DNA from: Escherichia coli 042
Lineage (GTDB): Bacteria > Pseudomonadota > Gammaproteobacteria > Enterobacterales > Enterobacteriaceae
Length of the DNA: 64,000 bases
Strand: one strand, 5' to 3'
Assembly: GCF_000027125.1 (NCBI RefSeq)
Contig: NC_017626.1
Shown: one piece after another, positions 1 to 57,936 of the stretch
How positions within the stretch are numbered: the stretch's first letter is position 1
Layout: the number at the start of each line of letters is the position of its first letter
Program-made: the position numbers and the translations under genes
The notes under the pieces: model-generated
The model's input: the letters and a program-made list of their open reading frames with translations, nothing else
What the model was told of the DNA's origin: nothing
Database searches by the model: none

Positions 1-101
1 CCCAATACCTTGATATATTCTGAATTTTTAATGAAGCGGCGTGTTACGATATCTCCGTCAGGGGAATTGATGCACCATAGCGCAAACCGAATTATCAAGG
101 A

Positions 102-713
102 TTGATAATGACGCTCTACCAGATAAAACCGCTCTTTCAGTCGCTGTTAAGGCCGACGATGTTTTGGCTTAATAAGCACCATGTTACAGCGAATCACATC
201 ACTCTTGCTGCACTGGCACTTTCTCTTCTTAGCGGATTGCTGTTGATGTTGGTGGCACAACCCATCCTCTTTTTGCTATTGCCTATCGTGCTTTTTATCC
301 GTATGGCGCTCAATGCGCTGGATGGCATGATGGCGCGTGAGTGCAATCAGCAAACACATCTTGGGGCGATTTTGAATGAAACAGGCGATGTTATTTCCGA
401 TATTGCGCTTTATTTACCGTTTTTATTTTTACCGGAAAGTAACGCATCACTCGTAATACTCATGTTATTTTGCACCATATTGACTGAGTTTTGCGGTTTA
501 CTCGCGCAGACGATTAACGGTATTCGCAGTTATGCCGGTCCATTTGGCAAAAGCGATCGCGCGTTAATATTTGGTCTGTGGGGTCTGGCCATTGCCATTT
601 ATCCACAGTGGATGCAATGGAATAATCTTTTATGGGGCATTGCTTCAATTCTGCTTCTCTGGACTGCGATTAATCGTTGTCGGAGTGTGCTTTTTATGAG
701 TGCAGAAAGATAA
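102..713 (+). CDS. ynbA: CDP-alcohol phosphatidyltransferase family inner membrane protein YnbA
   Basis: 203-codon ORF (likely real start at the second Met, 108); hydrophobic multi-TM protein; matches remembered K-12 YnbA; stop overlaps ynbB ATG at 713. Confidence 0.88.
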   Translation: MIMTLYQIKPLFQSLLRPTMFWLNKHHVTANHITLAALALSLLSGLLLMLVAQPILFLLLPIVLFIRMALNALDGMMARECNQQTHLGAILNETGDVISDIALYLPFLFLPESNASLVILMLFCTILTEFCGLLAQTINGIRSYAGPFGKSDRALIFGLWGLAIAIYPQWMQWNNLLWGIASILLLWTAINRCRSVLFMSAER

Positions 714-877
714 TGCTGGAAAAATCTCTGGCAACACTTTTCGCGTTGTTAATTTTAGCAACGCTGATAAACCGTTTTCTGATATGGCGGTTACCGGAGA
801 GAAAAGGGGGTGAGGTTACATTACGTATTCGTACCTGGTGGGGCATCGTCATTTGTTTTTCAGGTAATGACTCCAAC

Positions 878-1255
878 TTATTGATAGTGTTTTATGTTCA
901 GATAATGCCCGATGACTTTGTCATGCAGCTCCACCGATTTTGAGAACGACAGCGACTTCCGTCCCAGCCGTGCCAGGTGCTGCCTCAGATTCAGGTTATG
1001 CCGCTCAATTCGCTGCGTATATCGCTTGCTGATTACGTGCAGCTTTCCCTTCAGGCGGGATTCATACAGCGGCCAGCCATCCGTCATCCATATCACCACG
1101 TCAAAGGGTGACAGCAGGCTCATAAGACGCCCCAGCGTCGCCATCGTGCGTTCACCGAATACGTGCGCAACAACCGTCTTCCGGAGACTGTCATACGCGT
1201 AAAACAGCCAGCGCTGGCGCGATTTAGCCCCGACATAGCCCCACTGTTCGTCCAT
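878..1255 (-). CDS. insB: IS1 InsB' transposase frame (expressed as InsAB' by -1 frameshift)
   Basis: 125-aa ORF from an internal Met, ...[70 protein letters not shown]; the frame extends further upstream without an ATG, as in canonical IS1. Confidence 0.85.
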
Positions 1256-1299
1256 TTCCGCGCAGACGATGACGTCACTGCCCGGCTGTATGCGCGAGG

Positions 1300-1575
1300 T
1301 TACCGACTGCGGCCTGAGTTTTTTAAGTGACGTAAAATCGTGTTGAGGCCAACGCCCATAATGCGGGCAGTTGCCCGGCAGCCAACGCCATTCATGGCCA
1401 TATCAATGATTTTCTGGTGCGTACCGGGTTGAGAAGCGGTGTAAGTGAACTGCAGTTGCCATGTTTTACGGCAGTGAGAGCAGAGATAGCGCTGATGTCC
1501 GGCGGTGCTTTTGCCGTTACGCACCACTCCGTCAGTAGCTGAACAGGAGGGACAGCTGATAGAAACAGAAGCCAC
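1300..1575 (-). CDS. insA: IS1 InsA transposition regulator
   Basis: 91-aa [45 protein letters not shown]... is the canonical IS1 InsA. Confidence 0.93.
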
Positions 1576-2401
1576 TGGAGCACCTCAAAAACACCATCAT
1601 ACACTAAATCAGTAAGTTGGCAGCATCACCTGTTTTTCAATGGTGATTTCAGGTCCACGCTGGATGACGTTGACGTTTTTTGCGCTGATAAGTTTTCTGG
1701 CATTGAAAGAATATTGTACGCTTATATCTGTACATTTTCCGCGTTGGTTATATTGGGGTATTCCTCTTAACTATTTGCTTATCGGTTTTAATTGCTTTGA
1801 GCTGTTTCTGTTATTTATACCTTTGGCTGGGTTTCTGATATTAGCCACTTGGCGAGTTTTTGTGGGTGACCCCTCCGGTTTTCTGCATACCGTGAGCGCC
1901 ATTTTTTGGGGCTGGATAATGACCGTTTTCGCCTTGAGTCATGCCGCCTGGTTGTTAATGTTGCCAACCATAAATATCCAGGGCGAGGCGTTACTGGTGT
2001 TATTTCTTTTGGCATTAACCGAGTCAAACGATATTGCACAGTATTTATGGGGAAAATCCTGCGGCAGAAGAAAAGTGGTCCCTAAAGTCAGCCCGGGAAA
2101 AACATTGGAAGGTCTGATGGGCGGCGTAATCACCACCATTATTGCGTCACTGATTATTGGACCGTTGCTGACACCGCTAGATACATTACAGGCATTATTA
2201 GCGGGTTTGTTAATTGGTATTAGTGGTTTTTGCGGCGATGTAGTGATGTCAGCCATCAAACGAAATATTGGTGTTAAAGATAGTGGAAAACTATTACCAG
2301 GACATGGCGGACTCCTTGACAGGATTGACTCATTAATTTTCACCGCTCCGGTATTTTTTTATTTTATTCGCTACTGCTGTTACTGAAGGAAAACAGAGAA
2401 A

Positions 2402-5465
<3,064 letters not shown>

Positions 5466-5518
5466 GCGGATTGAGATGTGGACTGAATATCTACAGTCCA
5501 CATCAAGATCGTGTCCGC

Positions 5519-6133
<615 letters not shown>

Positions 6134-6324
6134 TTATAGATGTTTGAATGGGCGATGCCCCGTTGCTTGTTGACACTTTATTCACAATCCTGCCACAGAG
6201 ATAGCGCAATAAATCGAAGCCTATGTTCGAATTTATTGAACAACGCATAGAAAGCCGCGATGTGGTACTCTATATCTATCATTTAAAAGAAAATTAATCA
6301 GGCAGCCTACTGCCCACTAACGTT

Positions 6325-9300
6325 ATGACAGAACAACAAAAATTGACCTTTACGGCCTTGCAGCAGCGGCTGGATTCGCTGATGCTGCGCGACAGACAGC
6401 GTTTTTCTCGCCGTCTGCACGGCGTGAAGAAGGTTAAAAATCCTGATGCACAACAGGCCATTTTCCAGGAGATGGCGAAAGAGATTGACCATGCGGCAGG
6501 GAAAGTCCTGCTGCGTGAAGCGGCACGACCGGAAATCACTTATCCGGACAATTTGCCGGTTAGTCAGAAAAAGCAGGACATTCTCGAAGCAATTCGTGAT
6601 CACCAGGTAGTGATCGTCGCCGGGGAAACGGGTTCCGGTAAAACGACTCAGCTACCGAAAATCTGTATGGAGCTGGGCCGCGGGATTAAAGGGCTGATCG
6701 GCCATACCCAGCCGCGTCGTCTGGCGGCGCGAACGGTGGCGAACCGTATTGCGGAAGAGCTGAAAACGGAGCCGGGCGGTTGCATCGGTTACAAAGTGCG
6801 TTTCAGCGATCACGTAAGTGATAACACGATGGTCAAGCTGATGACCGACGGTATCCTGCTGGCGGAGATCCAGCAAGACCGCCTGCTGATGCAGTACGAC
6901 ACCATCATTATTGACGAAGCGCACGAACGCAGCCTGAATATCGATTTTCTGCTCGGCTATTTGAAAGAGTTGCTGCCGCGGCGTCCTGACCTAAAAATCA
7001 TTATCACTTCCGCGACTATCGACCCGGAACGCTTTTCGCGCCACTTTAATAATGCGCCGATTATCGAAGTCTCCGGTCGGACCTATCCGGTGGAAGTGCG
7101 CTATCGCCCGATTGTTGAAGAAGCCGATGATACCGAGCGCGATCAGTTGCAGGCGATTTTTGACGCTGTAGACGAACTGAGCCAGGAAAGCCCTGGCGAC
7201 ATTCTGATCTTTATGAGTGGTGAGCGGGAAATTCGCGATACCGCCGATGCGCTGAACAAGCTGAACTTACGCCATACCGAAATCTTGCCGCTTTATGCGC
7301 GGCTTTCGAACAGCGAACAGAACCGCGTGTTCCAGTCGCACAGTGGACGGCGCATTGTGCTGGCGACCAACGTCGCGGAAACCTCGCTGACCGTACCGGG
7401 GATTAAATACGTTATCGACCCAGGTACGGCGCGTATCAGCCGCTACAGCTATCGCACTAAAGTGCAGCGTTTGCCGATTGAGCCGATTTCTCAGGCGTCT
7501 GCCAACCAGCGTAAAGGCCGCTGTGGTCGTGTGTCAGAAGGGATCTGTATTCGTCTCTATTCGGAAGATGATTTCCTGTCGCGCCCGGAGTTTACCGATC
7601 CGGAGATTCTGCGTACCAACCTGGCCTCGGTTATTTTACAGATGACCGCGTTGGGGCTGGGTGATATCGCCGCGTTCCCATTTGTCGAAGCGCCGGATAA
7701 ACGTAATATCCAGGATGGCGTGCGTCTGCTCGAAGAGCTGGGCGCGATCACCACTGATGAACAGGCCAGCGCCTATAAACTGACGCCGCTCGGTCGCCAG
7801 CTTTCGCAATTGCCTGTCGATCCTCGTCTGGCGCGTATGGTGCTGGAAGCGCAAAAACATGGCTGCGTGCGTGAGGCGATGATTATCACGTCCGCGCTCT
7901 CCATCCAGGATCCGCGCGAACGACCGATGGACAAACAGCAGGCATCGGACGAAAAACATCGTCGCTTCCACGACAAAGAATCCGACTTCCTCGCGTTTGT
8001 AAATCTGTGGAATTATCTTGGCGAGCAGCAAAAGGCGCTTTCTTCCAACGCCTTCCGTCGCCTGTGTCGTACCGATTATCTCAACTATCTGCGCGTGCGC
8101 GAATGGCAGGATATCTACACCCAGTTGCGCCAGGTAGTAAAAGAACTTGGCATTCCAGTTAACAGCGAACCGGCGGAGTATCGCGAAATTCACATCGCCT
8201 TACTGACCGGTTTGCTTTCCCATATCGGCATGAAAGATGCCGATAAACAAGAATATACCGGCGCACGTAACGCGCGTTTTTCCATCTTTCCCGGTTCTGG
8301 TTTATTCAAAAAGCCGCCGAAATGGGTAATGGTGGCGGAACTGGTAGAAACCAGCCGCCTGTGGGGGCGCATTGCGGCACGCATCGATCCAGAATGGGTG
8401 GAGCCAGTTGCTCAGCATTTAATTAAACGCACCTACAGCGAACCACACTGGGAACGGGCGCAGGGCGCGGTGATGGCAACGGAAAAAGTCACCGTTTACG
8501 GGTTGCCGATTGTTGCCGCGCGTAAGGTCAACTACAGCCAGATCGATCCGGCGTTATGTCGTGAACTCTTTATTCGCCACGCGCTGGTGGAAGGTGACTG
8601 GCAGACACGTCATGCATTCTTCCGTGAAAACCTGAAACTGCGGGCTGAAGTGGAAGAACTGGAACACAAAACACGTCGCCGCGATATTCTGGTGGATGAC
8701 GAAACGCTGTTTGAGTTTTATGACCAGCGCATCAGCCACGATGTGATCTCTGCACGTCACTTCGACAGCTGGTGGAAAAAAGTCAGCCGCGAAACGCCTG
8801 ATTTGCTCAACTTTGAAAAGAGCATGTTGATCAAAGAAGGGGCGGAAAAGATCAGCAAGCTGGATTACCCGAACTTCTGGCATCAGGGCAATCTCAAACT
8901 GCGTTTGAGCTATCAGTTTGAGCCGGGGGCAGATGCTGACGGTGTGACTGTGCATATCCCGCTGCCGTTACTTAACCAGGTTGAGGAGAGCGGGTTTGAG
9001 TGGCAGATCCCCGGTCTGCGCCGCGAACTGGTGATTGCTCTGATTAAATCGTTGCCGAAACCAGTACGCCGTAATTTTGTGCCCGCGCCAAACTACGCCG
9101 AAGCTTTTTTAGGCCGCGTCACACCGCTGGAATTGCCGTTGCTCGACAGCCTTGAACGAGAGCTGCGGCGGATGACTGGCGTCACCGTTGACCGCGAAGA
9201 CTGGCACTGGGATCAGGTGCCCGATCACCTGAAAATCACCTTCCGCGTGGTGGATGACAAAAACAAGAAGCTAAAAGAAGGGCGCTCATTACAGGATCTG

Positions 9301-16096: not shown

Positions 16097-16340
16097 AGGA
16101 TATTTAAAGAAAACGCCTGTACTAAAACCGACCCGTGGTACAGGCGAAGAATACGGGTCTACATCGGAAGCGCCTATTATATTTATTTGTGTGACAAATA
16201 AAACCATAATCCTGGTCCATACGTCCATCTGGCTTATCTTTAATCAATTCACCCGATCTTTGATCTCATCAACGGTATCAAAATAAACCAGCGTATAACG
16301 TTCAAATCGAACATAAGATTCGATAAACCATGGAGGTTAT

Positions 16341-16586: not shown

Positions 16587-16736
<150 letters not shown>

Positions 16737-16759
16737 AGCCTTTCTCCTTGCCGGATGGC

Positions 16760-16830
16760 GGGTAAGAGGCTAAGATCTGAATTGCTAGGTTCATTCGTTG
16801 GCCTCGGTTGATAGAAATATCGGTCGGGGC
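16760..16830 (+). ncRNA. sokB: Probable sokB antisense RNA region (approximate)
   Basis: Position antisense to the mokB/hokB leader, by analogy with hok/sok loci; boundaries not determined. Confidence 0.3.
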
Positions 16831-17134
16831 CTTCGTCTTTCTGATTCCCGGTTAGCCTGAAAACAGAAAGTCTCAGGCACCCGTGAGCATCCTATGTGGT
16901 TTCCTTAGGGACGAAAATAATCACCTGACGAAATTGCGTGCTGTTTTCCAGAATTTTTCGTCATTCGGTTTAGCCAGTTTAATCATTCGTTACTCTCTTC
17001 ATTCCAATGGCATTATTCTTCTCTGCCATAATTGTTGTAAAAATGTGACGCAAAGAGGTTTTTGGTCGTAAGAAATTACCGTCAAGTGCCGATGACTTTC
17101 TATCAGGAGTAAACCTGGAAGAGAGTCAACGGTA

Positions 17135-31660: not shown

Positions 31661-31729
31661 AACGCCAGTTTTCTGGTTACTCACAACTTATCAAATCTGC
31701 ATGATATTGTTGGCCGGGTAAGGCGTTAC

Positions 31730-32484
<755 letters not shown>

Positions 32485-32588
32485 ATCAGCATACTTGTCC
32501 TTAGCCTTCTGCAGTGACAGCTGGTAGTACAGCGTGCTTCTGGCCAGCCCTGCAGCCTTTAACAGGTCAGACTGGCAGTGTCCGCACC

Positions 32589-33119
32589 TCAGGCTCCGGA
32601 TGACTTTCGTTTTTTCTCCAGCTCCTGGCGCTTTTTTTCCAGGAGATGCTCCTGCATGGCTTTCAGATATGCATTTTCTGCGCGAAGATAACGCAGCTCA
32701 TTCTTCATCTCTTCCGGCGTCATGTTTGCCTCGTTTTCATGGGTATCATCAGAACGGGTCATGCTTTTCTCCTTCCTGCGCCTGATAAAGGCCTCATTAC
32801 CAGATTTGCGGTAGCCTTTTATCCAGTTTTTAACCGTGTTGTGGCTGGGAATGTTAAACCGGGCAGCTACCCGGGGTAGAGACTCAGAATGCCCGAGAGC
32901 ATAAAGAACCACGCAAAGTTTATCTTCAGGAGAATAGCTACGCTTGTGTCTGCAATCCAGTGCCCGAGGACCGTGAAGAAGAAAAAGATTAATCCAGTGT
33001 GAGAGGCTGGTGTGAGAAAGTTGAAAGAGTTTTGCCGTAGAAATGATGCCTGCATGACCAGCCAGGTAATGATTTACAGCGGCAAGTTTTACTTCAAATG
33101 AATGTTTCATAAACTGCAC
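32589..33119 (-). CDS. IS3-family transposase OrfA (HTH)
   Basis: 176-aa ORF with HTH and leucine-zipper-like C-terminus, ending in an A-rich slippery run (gagaaaaaacga). Confidence 0.88.
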   Translation of the reverse strand: MQFMKHSFEVKLAAVNHYLAGHAGIISTAKLFQLSHTSLSHWINLFLLHGPRALDCRHKRSYSPEDKLCVVLYALGHSESLPRVAARFNIPSHNTVKNWIKGYRKSGNEAFIRRRKEKSMTRSDDTHENEANMTPEEMKNELRYLRAENAYLKAMQEHLLEKKRQELEKKRKSSGA

Positions 33120-33186
33120 CTTCAGATGTCAGATTATGTCCAACATTTGGGGTGCAGTTCATACGCCGCATCCGGCAATAAATGAC

Positions 33187-52554: not shown

Positions 52555-53093
52555 CAATAATGCCGGAGGTTAATGTTAATGAATCACTGGCGTAATTAAC
52601 TGGATATCCATTTGTTTGCTATGAATAGTAATTAAAGTTGGTACAACTATTTATATGATTGATGTAATTTCGTTTTTTATATGAAATATCAATTTAATAT
52701 AATCCGAAAATAAAACATCTTTTCGCATGTAGAGAAACATGTCGATATGATAGTGCAGTGCAGATCATGTCATCAGGGTAGGGCGGTAGCGTATTTAATC
52801 AGGGAAAGATTACGCAACGCTGCTTTTTTGTATTGAACGATTCGCATTTTATGTTTAAAAATTGCGATATTCCTTATTTCCTGAAGCTGTTTTTATTGCT
52901 TATACATGATCAAATACTCCTTACATAATTAAGGAGAACAAAATGGAACTTAATACACGCCAACAATTTGTATTACTTAAATAGACCAGTGAAGGTACGC
53001 ATCAGAACATCCGGTGAAGTGATTAATATTTCGTTGAATATTTCTCCCGATTTTTGAAACCTGCTGCTGTAGAAATTCTGAACAGGAGGAATT

Positions 53094-53378
53094 ATGCCTT
53101 TAGCAGCCAAACTCACCGACAAAGGCACCCAGCACGACGGTTATTACGAGACCGTCATCACCGCCGGGTCATCCACCGTCTTTATCGATGGTCTTCCCGC
53201 AGCCCGTCAGGGAGATCCGCTGACGCCGCATGCTAAACCGAAGCATCCCCCTCATCCCCGTAAAATCGCCAGAGGTTCTTCAACCGTCTTTATTGACGGC
53301 CTGCCCGCCGCCAGAAGCGGTGATGCTGTTGACTGCGGCGGCGTGGTTATTGGTGGCGGTACGGTAAATATAGGCTGA
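53094..53378 (+). CDS. PAAR-repeat protein (T6SS spike tip)
   Basis: 94-aa ORF with two LPAAR motifs (VFIDGLPAARQGD, VFIDGLPAARSGD); SD aggagg; 18 bp upstream of vgrG. Confidence 0.8.
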   Translation: MPLAAKLTDKGTQHDGYYETVITAGSSTVFIDGLPAARQGDPLTPHAKPKHPPHPRKIARGSSTVFIDGLPAARSGDAVDCGGVVIGGGTVNIG

Positions 53379-53396
53379 TATGTCTGAGAGGTATTT

Positions 53397-55802
53397 ATGT
53401 CCTTAAAAGGTCTTCGCTTTACGCTGGAGGTTGACGGCCAGGAGCCGGACACCTTTGCAGTGGTGAATTTCAGGTTAATCCAGAACCAGTCATATCCGTT
53501 TGTGATGAGTGTGGATGTTGCCAGCGACTCTTTTATGCAGACGGCGGAGATGCTGCTGGAGAAGAAGGCGACACTGACCATCTGGCAGGGCGCAGTGGCG
53601 CAGCGTTATGTCACCGGCGTGGTGGCGGGTTTTGGCATGCAGGAGAATAACGGCTGGCAGATGCGTTATCACCTGCGTATTGAGCCGCCGTTATGGCGGT
53701 GCGGGCTGCGGCAGAACTTTCGTATCTTCCAGCAGCAGGATATCCGGACGATATCGGCCACGTTACTGAACGAGAACGGCGTCACGGAGTGGACGCCGCT
53801 GTTTTATGAGGACCATCCGGCGCGGGAGTTCTGTGTCCAGTACGGGGAGTCGGACCTGGCGTTTCTGTCCCGGCTGTGGGCGGAGGAGGGTCTTTTCTTC
53901 TTTGAGCGGTTTGCGGCGGACAGTCCGGAGCAGAAGCTGACGCTGTGCGACGATGTGGCGGGGCTGTCACAGGCGGGGGAGTTTCCGTTTAACCCGGACA
54001 CATCGGCAGGTGCGGAGACGGAGTGTGTCAGTATGTTCCGTTATGAGGCGCATGTCCGCCCGTCATCGGTGCAGAGCCAGGATTACACCTTTAAGGTGCC
54101 GGACTGGCCGGGGATGTATGAGCAGCAGGGTGAGAACCTGAACGGACAGCTGGAGCAGTATGAGATATTTGATTATCCGGGAAGGTACAAGGATGAACAG
54201 CACGGCAAGGATTTCACGCTGTACCAGATGGAGAGCCTGCGCAGTGATGCGGAAAAGGCCACAGGGCAGAGTAATTCGCCGAAGCTGTGGCCGGGAACGC
54301 GGTTTATGCTGACGGGGCATCCGCAGAAGATGCTGAACCGTGAATGGCAGGTGGTACAGAGCATACTGTCAGGAAACCAGCCGCAGGCGCTGCACGGCAG
54401 CCAGGGAAAGGGAACCACGCTGGGCAATCAGTTAGAGGTGATACCGGCGGACCGGACGTGGCGTCCACGGCTGCAAAACAAACCGAAGGTGGACGGGCCA
54501 CAGAGCGCCATCGTCACCGGTCCTGCGGGAGAGGAAATCTTCTGCGATGAACATGGACGGGTACGGGTGAAGTTCCACTGGGACCGTTATCACGGGATGA
54601 CGGAGGCGAGTTCATGCTGGGTGCGGGTATCGCAGGCGTGGGCGGGGCCGGGGTTCGGTAACCTGGCGATACCACGGGTGGGTCAGGAGGTGATAGTGGA
54701 CTTCCTGAACGGCGACCCGGACCAGCCGATAATCATGGGGCGGACGTACCATGAGGACAACCGTTCGCCGGGCGACCTGCCGGGAACGAAGACGCAGATG
54801 ACCATCCGGTCAAAAACCTATAAAGGAAGCGGATTTAACGAGCTGCGGTTTGAAGACGCCACCAGTAATGAGCAGGTGTATATCCATGCCCAGAAGAACA
54901 TGGATACGGAGGTGCTCAACGACCGGACAACGGATGTGAAACATGACCATACGGAAACCATCGGGAACGACCAGAAGATAACGGTGGTGAAGGGGCAGAC
55001 GGTTCAGGTCGGGACCAGAAAAGAAGGGGGCCACGACCAGAGTATCACGGTGGCGAACGACCGGTGCATCACGGTACGTAATGACCAGACGCTGCAGGTG
55101 ACGAATGACCGGACGGTGAGCGTGAGTAATGATGACGGCCTGTACGTCAGAAATGACCGTAAAGTGACGGTGGAAGGGAAGCAGGAGCATAAGACGACGG
55201 GGAACCATATCAGTCTGGTGGAGGGAAAGCACAGCCTGGTGGTGAAGGGGGACCTGGCGAGGAAGGTGAGTGGCGCGCTGGGGATAAAGGTGGACGGGGA
55301 TATCGTGCTGGAGAGCAGCAGCCGGATAAGCCTGAAGGTGAGTGGCTCGTTTGTGGTCATCCATTCAGGGGGCGTGGACATCGTCGGGCCGAAAATCAAT
55401 CTCAATAGCGGCGGTAGTCCGGGGACGCCGGTGCCGGCGCTGCAACCGGCGGTGCTGAAGACACTGGGGGATGAGAAGAGTGGTGATGGCAGTGATTCCG
55501 GAGAAGAAAATGAAGACTCTGGAGGGAACTGCGTGACCGGAAGTGGTGGTGATGATCGAGGTGACGATGAGGATGAACCTGAAAAATATACTCTCCAGTT
55601 CCATTTTACAGACGATGACGGGATACCGTATTCAGAAACCCGCTACATTGCCTTCTTTGAGGATGGCACGCAGACCCGCGGAGAAACGGATGAAGAGGGG
55701 TATACAGAGCGTTTTTTTGTATCTAGCAAACATGAAATTAAAGTGAAGTTGTTATTTGCGAATGATGATTTTCTCTCAATGGAAGGACACTATGGACGAT
55801 AA
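53397..55802 (+). CDS. vgrG: Type VI secretion spike protein VgrG with C-terminal extension
   Basis: 801-aa ORF with gp27/gp5-like N-terminal two thirds, beta-helix repeat region (TVSVSNDDGLYVRNDRKVTV...), then an acidic Gly/Ser/Asp linker and a ~70-aa C-terminal domain. Confidence 0.9.
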   Translation: MSLKGLRFTLEVDGQEPDTFAVVNFRLIQNQSYPFVMSVDVASDSFMQTAEMLLEKKATLTIWQGAVAQRYVTGVVAGFGMQENNGWQMRYHLRIEPPLWRCGLRQNFRIFQQQDIRTISATLLNENGVTEWTPLFYEDHPAREFCVQYGESDLAFLSRLWAEEGLFFFERFAADSPEQKLTLCDDVAGLSQAGEFPFNPDTSAGAETECVSMFRYEAHVRPSSVQSQDYTFKVPDWPGMYEQQGENLNGQLEQYEIFDYPGRYKDEQHGKDFTLYQMESLRSDAEKATGQSNSPKLWPGTRFMLTGHPQKMLNREWQVVQSILSGNQPQALHGSQGKGTTLGNQLEVIPADRTWRPRLQNKPKVDGPQSAIVTGPAGEEIFCDEHGRVRVKFHWDRYHGMTEASSCWVRVSQAWAGPGFGNLAIPRVGQEVIVDFLNGDPDQPIIMGRTYHEDNRSPGDLPGTKTQMTIRSKTYKGSGFNELRFEDATSNEQVYIHAQKNMDTEVLNDRTTDVKHDHTETIGNDQKITVVKGQTVQVGTRKEGGHDQSITVANDRCITVRNDQTLQVTNDRTVSVSNDDGLYVRNDRKVTVEGKQEHKTTGNHISLVEGKHSLVVKGDLARKVSGALGIKVDGDIVLESSSRISLKVSGSFVVIHSGGVDIVGPKINLNSGGSPGTPVPALQPAVLKTLGDEKSGDGSDSGEENEDSGGNCVTGSGGDDRGDDEDEPEKYTLQFHFTDDDGIPYSETRYIAFFEDGTQTRGETDEEGYTERFFVSSKHEIKVKLLFANDDFLSMEGHYGR

Positions 55803-56583
55803 TAATCAAACTTCTGGACAACCAAAGCCAGAGCCAGAAGAATGTGTGAAAGAGCAAAAAATAACTGATCATTTTAAAATAATGATTGATAAGGCTCGTA
55901 AGGCACAAAAGTTGGTTTTGATAAAAAGAGCAGATGATCTTTTGAGATGGGGAGCACAGGAGGAATATGATTTCAGTAAGATCTTTGGTGTTAAAGGAAA
56001 TAAGGAGGTTAATATAAGAAAATATGGACATAATACAGGTAGGCGCATGAATGCTAGATTTCTTATGATGGATGGTGTGAGAAGATTAATGATTATAGCT
56101 AATGATTTAACAATGAGCAGTTTTATAAATTATACAGGTTGTAATGAATTTGCAGCATTCGTCAGCCCAAGTAAGGATATGCCCTATATAATTAACATAG
56201 GCGCAAAATTTGAGTATAGAGATGGCAAAAAAAATCCAGTAACGGGAAAGGATTCTCATGTTGCTACTTTATGTCATGAAATGTCTCATATTCAGTGGTA
56301 TTATGGGGATAATAAAAAAGGTGGTATGTGGTCACAGGATTATACAACTACTGATAAATATTCAACGTGCAAAGAGGATGAAGTTTCATATGACGAACAT
56401 ATCCGTATTGCAACTAAACTGATCTCTAAACAAAAAGATCAAATATTCGAGAATGCATATAACATAGAAAGATATTTTGAAATAAGATTAATTGAAAGTG
56501 AGATAGACTCGATTAATGATGAAATATTAAGCAATTCAGTTAAGAAAAAAATAGCGGAATTAGAAAAAGCACTTCTCCATTAA
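55792..56583 (+). CDS. Putative T6SS cargo effector with HExxH zinc-metallopeptidase motif
   Basis: 263 codons from ATG 55792, which overlaps the last 11 bp of vgrG; motif TLCHEMSHIQWYYG (HEXXH); no signal peptide or TM segment. Confidence 0.6.
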   Translation: MDDNNQTSGQPKPEPEECVKEQKITDHFKIMIDKARKAQKLVLIKRADDLLRWGAQEEYDFSKIFGVKGNKEVNIRKYGHNTGRRMNARFLMMDGVRRLMIIANDLTMSSFINYTGCNEFAAFVSPSKDMPYIINIGAKFEYRDGKKNPVTGKDSHVATLCHEMSHIQWYYGDNKKGGMWSQDYTTTDKYSTCKEDEVSYDEHIRIATKLISKQKDQIFENAYNIERYFEIRLIESEIDSINDEILSNSVKKKIAELEKALLH

Positions 56584-56606
56584 CTAATAAGTCGAGAAAT
56601 ATATTA

Positions 56607-57428
56607 ATGCTGCAAGCTATAAAAAAAATCATAATAATGACAATCGTAAATATTATATTTTTCTATTCCTTTCAATCGACTGCGGATGAAATGGTTTTAA
56701 TAAAAAAATACGGGTTTGGGCTTGAGAGAGATATCAAAGGAAGGCCATTAATTTATCCTATCGAAAATTATGATGAGTGTAAGAAAAAATGCAATCATAT
56801 GAATTATATAGCGGATGTCAATGCTCAATTAGCTATGAGTAAAAAAAATAACAGGATTTTTGCTAACATAACCTTTACTAACAATAGCTCTACCACGTAT
56901 TTTTTTTCTAAATATTACCTACCTATGAAAGTAAAAGATGGAAAAGGAGATGAATATGATGCGATATGCAAAAAACCATTCAGAATCAACTCTGGGAATA
57001 TCACGTTGGACTACTTAGGTGGTTCATGTCCTTTTGAAATTAATACGAATCCTGAACGGTGGAATACTATTAAACCAGGTCGTAGTTTTTTGTTGAGTAT
57101 AACCTTAAATGATATGTATGCCTTTATACCAGGAGATAATTATTATTTTATAAAATCATCTGGCTATAAATTTGTTAATGACAAGTGGTTTACACTCAAA
57201 TCAATCAATAATATTTTTCTTTATTTTTTAAATTTAAAAATTAATTGTGCTGATGATTTTTTTGATATTAATAATTTTACTACATGTGATAATTTGTTAT
57301 TAGATGAAAAAAAACACTTTTTTATTAATCAGTTATGGGCAATTGAGGATGAAAAAAATTCTATTTACGTCACCCCTGATGAAATTTCTATAAGTATAGA
57401 CGGCGATAACTTAAAGTTGCCATATTAG
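56607..57428 (+). CDS. Putative cognate immunity protein (secreted/periplasmic)
   Basis: 273-aa ORF 23 bp after the effector; N-terminal signal peptide (IIIMTIVNIIFFYSFQSTA/DE); AT-rich; no recognisable domain. Confidence 0.5.
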   Translation: MLQAIKKIIIMTIVNIIFFYSFQSTADEMVLIKKYGFGLERDIKGRPLIYPIENYDECKKKCNHMNYIADVNAQLAMSKKNNRIFANITFTNNSSTTYFFSKYYLPMKVKDGKGDEYDAICKKPFRINSGNITLDYLGGSCPFEINTNPERWNTIKPGRSFLLSITLNDMYAFIPGDNYYFIKSSGYKFVNDKWFTLKSINNIFLYFLNLKINCADDFFDINNFTTCDNLLLDEKKHFFINQLWAIEDEKNSIYVTPDEISISIDGDNLKLPY

Positions 57429-57447
57429 GAATCTGTGAAAGAACAAG

Positions 57448-57936
57448 GTGCGCCGCTTTTTTGTACTAAATAATTCGCATTTTAGTCACGGCAGAGAAGA
57501 AATCCATCTTCATATTGTTTGCGATGTCCCTGATGAACTTATTGATTTCACGTTTGAATGGAAAGGTCAGAAGAAATTATGCGTGGCAGTCTCCTTTTGG
57601 TCAATAATAGCAGAACAAAAGAAAGAGCCAGAAATGACGGTCAGATATTATATCAGTTCTGCTGATTTAACCGCAAAAAAGTTCGCCACAGCGATACGAA
57701 ATCACTGGCACGTGGAGAATAAGCTGCACTGGCGTCTGGACGTGGTAATGAACGAAGACGACTGCAAAATAAGAAGAGGAAACGCCGCAGAATTATTTTC
57801 AGGGATACGGCACATCGCTATTAATATTTTAACGAATGATAAGGTATTCAAGGCAGGGTTAAGACGCAAGATGCGAAAAGCAGCTATGGACAGAGACTAC
57901 CTCGCGTCAGTCCTTGCGGGGAGCGGGCTTTCGTAA
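57448..57936 (+). pseudogene. H-repeat-associated (ISAs1-family transposase) C-terminal remnant
   Basis: 162-aa ORF whose C-terminal ~110 aa ([63 protein letters not shown]...) matches the C-terminus of H-rpt / ISAs1 transposases; N-terminal catalytic part absent. Confidence 0.75.

Follow-up and report, generated by a model that had tools for sequence, protein, structure and literature searches.

In the window, the 64,000-nucleotide (64-kb) stretch of DNA analysed here, ynbB in the ynbABCD operon is split by a complete copy of IS1 that is flanked by a perfect 9-bp target duplication. The presence of this insertion in ynbB, duplication included, is as good as certain, and the explanation that best accounts for the locus as a whole, which we hold to be very probable, is a simple IS1 insertion that knocks out ynbB with a probable polar effect on the genes behind it. 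It is a textbook IS1 insertion, an already known kind of event, and is in that sense routine and of little wider interest.

A complete IS1 element in the ynbABCD operon

IS1 is defined by a length of 768 bp, imperfect inverted repeats, the genes insA and insB with a -1 frameshift, and a target duplication of 8 or 9 bp (PMC12428005). The element at 863-1630 matches this definition in its length, its ends, its insA/insB' genes and the duplication beside it. By these features and the domains of its gene products it is a member of the IS1 family, with the following parts.

863-1630, minus strand: IS1 (IS1A-like), 768 bp, four nucleotide differences from K-12 IS1A
863-885, minus strand: right terminal inverted repeat (IRR), GGTAATGACTCCAACTTATTGAT, identical to K-12 IS1A
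1608-1630, minus strand: left terminal inverted repeat (IRL), reverse complement of GGTGATGCTGCCAACTTACTGAT, identical to K-12 IS1A
1575-1300, minus strand: insA, 91 amino acids, identical to K-12 InsA, with matches to PF03811 and PF12759
1324-1318, minus strand: A6C motif, programmed -1 frameshift site leading from insA into insB'
1575-878, minus strand: insAB' transposase, 232 amino acids after the -1 frameshift, identical to K-12 IS1A InsAB'
1623-1596, minus strand: promoter-like CTGCCA-16-TATGAT from a consensus scan, partly within IRL, at the position of the described weak insA promoter

The last of these agrees with the account of a weak IS1 promoter that partially overlaps IRL (PMC12428005). 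In an ungapped alignment over 768 of 768 positions, the element differs from the IS1A of K-12 MG1655 at IS positions 103, 250, 262 and 486 only; all four substitutions are synonymous, leaving InsA and InsAB' unchanged, and both ends are identical. The two terminal repeats are complementary to each other at 18 of 23 positions and are the only matches to IS1 ends in the 64-kb window, where 0.01 would be expected from shuffled sequence. The InsA zinc-ribbon, the InsA helix-turn-helix and the IS1 DDE domain (PF03811, PF12759 and PF03400) were all recovered far above the Pfam cut-offs, InsAB' matching PF03400 at 9e-78, and InsAB' also scored 243 bits (cut-off 100) with the NCBIfam equivalog NF033558, 'IS1 family transposase'. 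Since its ends are undamaged and its transposase does not differ from that of the active K-12 IS1A/E type, we infer that the element is probably competent for transposition. IS1 is present in 4970 of 5426 complete E. coli genomes, among which the closest copies of the window element are 99.7% identical to it over 768/768 bp.

The genes into which the element has been placed are those of the K-12 chromosome, since both the gene order, ynbA-ynbB-ynbC-ynbD-azoR-hrpA, and the gene lengths agree with it, and the interrupted gene is, judged from its sequence and position, the orthologue of ynbB (b1409), which encodes a CdsA-paralogous cytidylyltransferase. Scans with Rfam models and for tRNAs returned no RNA genes at the ynb locus.

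108-713, plus strand: ynbA, CDP-alcohol phosphatidyltransferase family (PF01066), 201 amino acids, 191/201 identical to K-12, no internal stop; its stop codon overlaps the start codon of ynbB
713-943, plus strand: ynbB 5' fragment, native codons 1-50 (713-862) followed by 26 IS-encoded residues, stop at 941-943
854-862, no strand: target-site duplication, left copy, TGTTTTTCA, found once only in L004 and L006, the relatives with an empty site
1631-1639, no strand: target-site duplication, right copy, TGTTTTTCA, a perfect match to the left copy
1640-2386, plus strand: ynbB 3' fragment, codons 51-298, opening with the native Met51 that adjoins the duplication and including the cytidylyltransferase catalytic region
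2402-4159, plus strand: ynbC, 585 amino acids, 556/585 identical to K-12, intact, no internal stop
4173-5465, plus strand: ynbD, last gene of the operon, 430 amino acids, 411/430 identical to K-12, intact, no internal stop

A match of 9/9 bases at two fixed positions would arise by chance with a probability of about 4e-6. When 863-1639 is deleted, an open reading frame is obtained that starts at 713 and runs over 298 codons and a stop, 897 bp in all; its product is identical to K-12 YnbB at 288/298 amino acids and matches PF01148 (CTP_transf_1) at 3e-68 over residues 37-295. The original prediction, which had described a complete 768-bp IS1 with both inverted repeats and insA/insB', is thereby borne out base for base. 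The same is true of the perfect 9-bp direct repeat, both copies of which are exact, of the in-frame 897-bp ynbB said to be restored on removal of the element and one repeat, which is indeed uninterrupted, and of the antisense orientation, the element lying on the minus strand and ynbABCD on the plus strand. Mis-reading of the repeats or of the restored frame, which had been named in advance as what would overturn the claim, was checked for, and all coordinates stand.

The proposed course of events is correspondingly simple. An IS1A-type element entered ynbB at codons 48-50 by ordinary IS1 transposition, duplicating the 9-bp TGTTTTTCA, within a sublineage of one E. coli clone. The gene is thereby simply knocked out, leaving a 76-amino-acid fusion peptide and a 248-codon 3' fragment predicted to have neither a promoter nor a ribosome-binding site; no Shine-Dalgarno sequence was found upstream of this fragment (1640). 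It keeps an in-frame ATG and the entire catalytic region, and some residual activity of a truncated protein made from it is conceivable.

Natural empty sites, carriers and age

IS-free relatives were found by exact-sequence look-up of the window's YnbC, and carriers of the insertion by this look-up together with a second one that used the junction-specific 76-amino-acid fusion ORF. Two natural relatives, an ENA metagenome contig (L004) and GCA_037910345.1 (L006), have an intact ynbB of 298 amino acids, and both contain, letter for letter, the 80-bp empty site as reconstructed, in line with the original description of the insertion as clean. Compared with the window, these two show no differences over the 862-bp left flank and 1 and 2 SNPs, respectively, in the roughly 6.5 kb that flank the element on the right, so that the IS-free relatives are 1-2 SNPs away overall in about 7.4 kb.

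The insertion itself recurs. LR134238.1 and LR134246.1, two independently assembled NCTC chromosomes from long reads, contain exact copies of both junction 60-mers. Three ENA metagenome contigs match the left junction exactly, and three drafts, with contigs that begin at 863, 1490 or 1529, match the right one; the 76-amino-acid fusion ORF has also been called in LR134238.1, LR134246.1 and ENA contigs. Draft contigs begin at window position 863, 1490, 1529 or 1632, and one contig broken at the element was found in at least 20 samples, a recurrent break in the draft assemblies of this clone that is caused by the IS1 insertion in ynbB. The TGTTTTTCA-site insertion is absent from all 5426 complete RefSeq E. 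coli genomes, to any of which window positions 1640-6200 are at most 98.6% identical.

Because some members of a very tight clone have the insertion and others lack it, it is evolutionarily young, and because its junctions recur in the two NCTC chromosomes and in metagenome and draft assemblies, it has been inherited by a sublineage of that clone; it is, moreover, real. Of the earlier claim that the insertion is recent, the evolutionary youth is upheld by IS-free relatives so close by, while any reading of it as private to a single isolate is not.

IS1 is a multicopy element at which short-read assemblies break, as the four contigs that start in or at the element (L007-L010) illustrate, and one could therefore ask whether a repeat has merely been misplaced into ynbB by the assembler. 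The exact junctions in two independent long-read chromosomes, in three metagenome contigs on the left and in three drafts on the right, together with a perfect 9-bp duplication, which a misplaced repeat would not leave behind, effectively refute such an artefact, to which we give practically no credence. We consider it just as implausible that the element marks a rearrangement junction, that is, an IS1-mediated deletion or inversion or the end of a composite transposon, in place of a simple insertion. Copies of IS1 with non-matching flanks, reflecting adjacent deletions or rearrangements, do occur at the ynb locus of other genomes (L011, L019, L024 and L025), but the flanks in the window are collinear, carry a perfect duplication, rejoin to the exact natural empty site and map adjacently in the IS-free relatives, and the window holds a single IS1 in 64 kb. 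A simple insertion is thus the reading that we retain.

In passing, LR134238.1 (L005/L026) and LR134246.1 (L027) were seen to differ from window positions 1-8157 by 0 mismatches and 3-6 single-base gaps, and these gaps split the gene calls of azoR, hrpA, ynbD and ydbD. Since the window and the drafts keep these four genes intact, the gaps look like homopolymer sequencing errors and not real pseudogenes.

Predicted polarity on ynbC and ynbD

The reading frame of ynbB ends at the stop codon at 941-943, 81 nt inside the element, and the plus strand through the element contains 9-13 stops in each of the three frames, so that from 943 to the start of ynbC (2402) nothing is obviously translated over about 1.4 kb. 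Between about 1020 and 1300 the plus-strand RNA is C-rich and G-poor, with 32-35% C and a C/G ratio of up to 1.69. IS1 has long been known to be polar whichever way it is oriented, with Rho as the mediator of this polarity; our literature search on IS1 polarity returned nothing useful. Transcription from the ynbA promoter would run antisense into the element, translation would stop 81 nt in, and the roughly 1.4 kb of untranslated RNA that remains would be open to Rho-dependent termination, probably lowering the expression of ynbC and ynbD in the manner of classical IS1 polarity. From the composition and coding content of this stretch, we judge polarity on ynbC and ynbD to be likely, if well short of assured.

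A less likely reading, which still deserves some weight, is that ynbB is knocked out by a non-polar IS1, ynbC and ynbD being expressed by read-through, from an internal promoter in the 3' part of ynbB, or from a hybrid promoter at IRL. Both downstream genes are fully intact, as this reading would have it, and IRL contains an outward-facing -35-like TTGGCA at 1617-1622; IS1 insertions reportedly create hybrid promoters, an observation that is said to go back to Prentki et al. in 1986. Against this, the hexamers 16-18 bp past TTGGCA (AATGGT, ATGGTG and TGGTGA) include no acceptable -10, which led us to reject an outward hybrid promoter at this end. A crude consensus scan, which could miss an internal ynbC promoter, returned nothing promoter-like on the plus strand from 863 to 2600, its sole match inside the element being the minus-strand CTGCCA-16-TATGAT at 1623-1596, and the 1.4 kb of untranslated RNA with its C-rich stretch favours Rho termination. 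The lack of inactivating mutations in ynbC and ynbD does not discriminate, as it fits a young insertion and continued expression under selection alike. Polarity therefore stays the reading that we favour for the two downstream genes.

Expected consequences of the loss of YnbB

YnbB is a paralogue of CdsA that backs up the first step in making the glycolipid MPIase, which becomes more abundant when YnbB is overproduced; a ynbB knock-out grows like its parent and has near-normal MPIase at 37 C, ynbB being non-essential, and the authors see YnbB as a backup for MPIase synthesis (PMC6362211). Both CdsA and YnbB are up-regulated below 25 C (PMC11413397), and PMC11413397 cites a 2023 paper according to which the coordinated up-regulation of CdsA and YnbB is essential in the cold. 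Because YnbB is a non-essential, cold-induced backup for MPIase synthesis, its loss in this lineage should, on the strength of this literature, produce no phenotype at 37 C and result at most in weaker cold adaptation.

For annotation, it follows that ynbB should be entered as a pseudogene in this lineage and that ynbC and ynbD should be flagged as possibly under-expressed. The insertion is a natural ynbB knock-out as well as a convenient clone-specific PCR marker, and the IS-bearing and IS-free, nearly identical isolates form a natural isogenic pair, which could be used to probe YnbB and the uncharacterised YnbC and YnbD in cold-induced MPIase synthesis outside K-12.

Other IS1 insertions in ynbA and ynbB

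Among the 5426 complete E. coli genomes, about 41 have IS1 inserted in or near ynbA/ynbB; 18 of them were found with the original query and 23 more, with sense-oriented or nearby copies, with a synthetic query in which the element had been flipped. RefSeq annotates ynbA or ynbB as pseudogenes in these other IS1-bearing genomes. Mapping of the junctions gave the following insertions, with positions in the coordinates of the reconstructed, IS-free ynbB.

446-454: duplication CACTCGTGA, in ynbA
505-513: duplication CGCAGACGA, in ynbA
835-843: duplication CTGGTGGGG, sense orientation, IS1B type, several genomes
844-852: duplication CATCGTCAT, IS1 insertion in ynbB
956-964: duplication CATTTTCCG, IS1 insertion in ynbB
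965-973: duplication CGGTGGTTA, IS1 insertion in ynbB, abutting 956-964
1262-1270: duplication CAGTATTTA, strain SE11
near 1543-1550: 8-bp duplication CAGGATTG

Two genomes (L024 and L025) share one CTGGTGGGG junction and have a mismatched flank at the other end of IS1, pointing to an adjacent deletion or rearrangement. The insertions clustered at 835-973 (L001-L003 and L021-L025) are in both orientations and comprise IS1A, IS1B and a divergent IS1. An apparent bias near ynbB towards antisense insertions only was an artefact of the joining of same-strand matches and was removed by the flipped query, and a candidate insertion at the window site in the opposite orientation (the 1501-bp single-piece matches H87-H95) proved to have the duplication CTGGTGGGG, 19 bp upstream.

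These recurrent hits invite the speculation that the loss of ynbB is adaptive, the start of the gene being selected or targeted as a micro hot spot or for a niche benefit. Three independent insertions, that of the window among them, have abutting duplications within 28 bp (835-843, 844-852 and 854-862), there is a second abutting pair (956-964 and 965-973), and IS1 lies in or close to ynbA/ynbB in some 41 of the 5426 complete genomes. A rough uniform expectation, obtained from 59,362 chromosomal IS1 copies and a capture zone of about 3.2 kb in 5 Mb, is however about 38 genomes, which leaves no regional enrichment and disposes of a regional hot spot; the statistic for clustering is weak (p about 0.2 in a rough scan estimate), the searches were centred on the window site and hence biased to nearby hits, and related genomes do not count as independent. 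We accordingly regard an adaptive or targeted origin as improbable. The same holds for its more specific form, in which the first 150 bp of ynbB, and especially 835-862, would be a preferred IS1 target and recurrent natural inactivation of ynbA/ynbB would mean that the cold-inducible YnbB backup route to MPIase is targeted or selected against; this too we think doubtful, and we keep to a simple insertion with an ordinary IS1.

Other features of the window

The window contains a second insertion sequence, which together with the IS1 in ynbB accounts for the draft contigs of about 30 kb that recur in this clone.

31730-33161, minus strand: IS1397 (IS3 family, 1432 bp), between rlhA and yncJ, 99.8% identity with RefSeq-annotated IS1397 copies
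31727-31729 and 33162-33164: IS1397 target duplication TAC

The flanks gccgggtaaggcgTTAC and TACgccgcatccggc on either side place this element in the loop of a REP-type palindromic unit, a known target preference of IS1397, and strain O17_K12a (L012) has the corresponding empty site with 100% identity.

Compared with the 5426 complete E. coli genomes, the window falls into segments of different affinity. The ynb-azoR segment (1-8000) does not exceed 98.6% identity with any of these genomes. For 8000-31730 one genome alone, GF60 (chicken meat, Switzerland), reaches 99.9% identity, the runner-up standing at 97.9%, whereas several human isolates (O17_K12a, KK19-02, Ecol_316 and others) match 31000-55900 at 100.0%. 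Such a mosaic of ancestry suggests blocks of recombination. Rfam models for the RydC sRNA and a sok antitoxin RNA (hok/sok-type, mokB-hokB) scored above the gathering threshold on the minus strand, at 16107-16170 and 16731-16882, respectively; this part of the chromosome is expected to carry both, and they have nothing to do with the IS1 insertion. At about 52600-57500, downstream of yncG, alignment to O17_K12a identified a type VI secretion PAAR-VgrG (tssI) module followed by a gene for an M35-family metalloendopeptidase, a module which we take to be absent from the K-12 layout.

Comparison with known systems

The window element can be set beside four known systems. The first comprises IS1A and IS1E of K-12, the 768-bp IS1 'consensus', with which it shares its length, inverted repeats, InsA, InsAB', A6C site and 9-bp duplication; it differs from them by its four silent substitutions and its chromosomal site, ynbB of K-12 being without IS1. 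The second is the classical polar IS1 mutations in gal and lac, which it resembles in that a promoter-proximal gene is hit, a premature stop is introduced and a long untranslated stretch follows, whereas the polarity proposed for the ynbB insertion has been read from the sequence. With the third, the laboratory ynbB knock-out (Keio JW1406 and derivatives), it has the loss of YnbB in common; the laboratory allele is a cassette replacement that was later excised, whereas the natural allele keeps its IS1 and may lower the expression of ynbC and ynbD. Finally, the IS1 insertions in ynbA/ynbB of SE11, GDSC2239PM, CP61_Sichuan, EC98 and EC21Z-063 involve the same family, the same operon and 9-bp duplications. 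The positions of the other ynbA/ynbB insertions differ from that in the window, the nearest lying 10 bp and 19 bp upstream of it, and some of them are in the opposite orientation and some consist of IS1B or more divergent IS1 variants.
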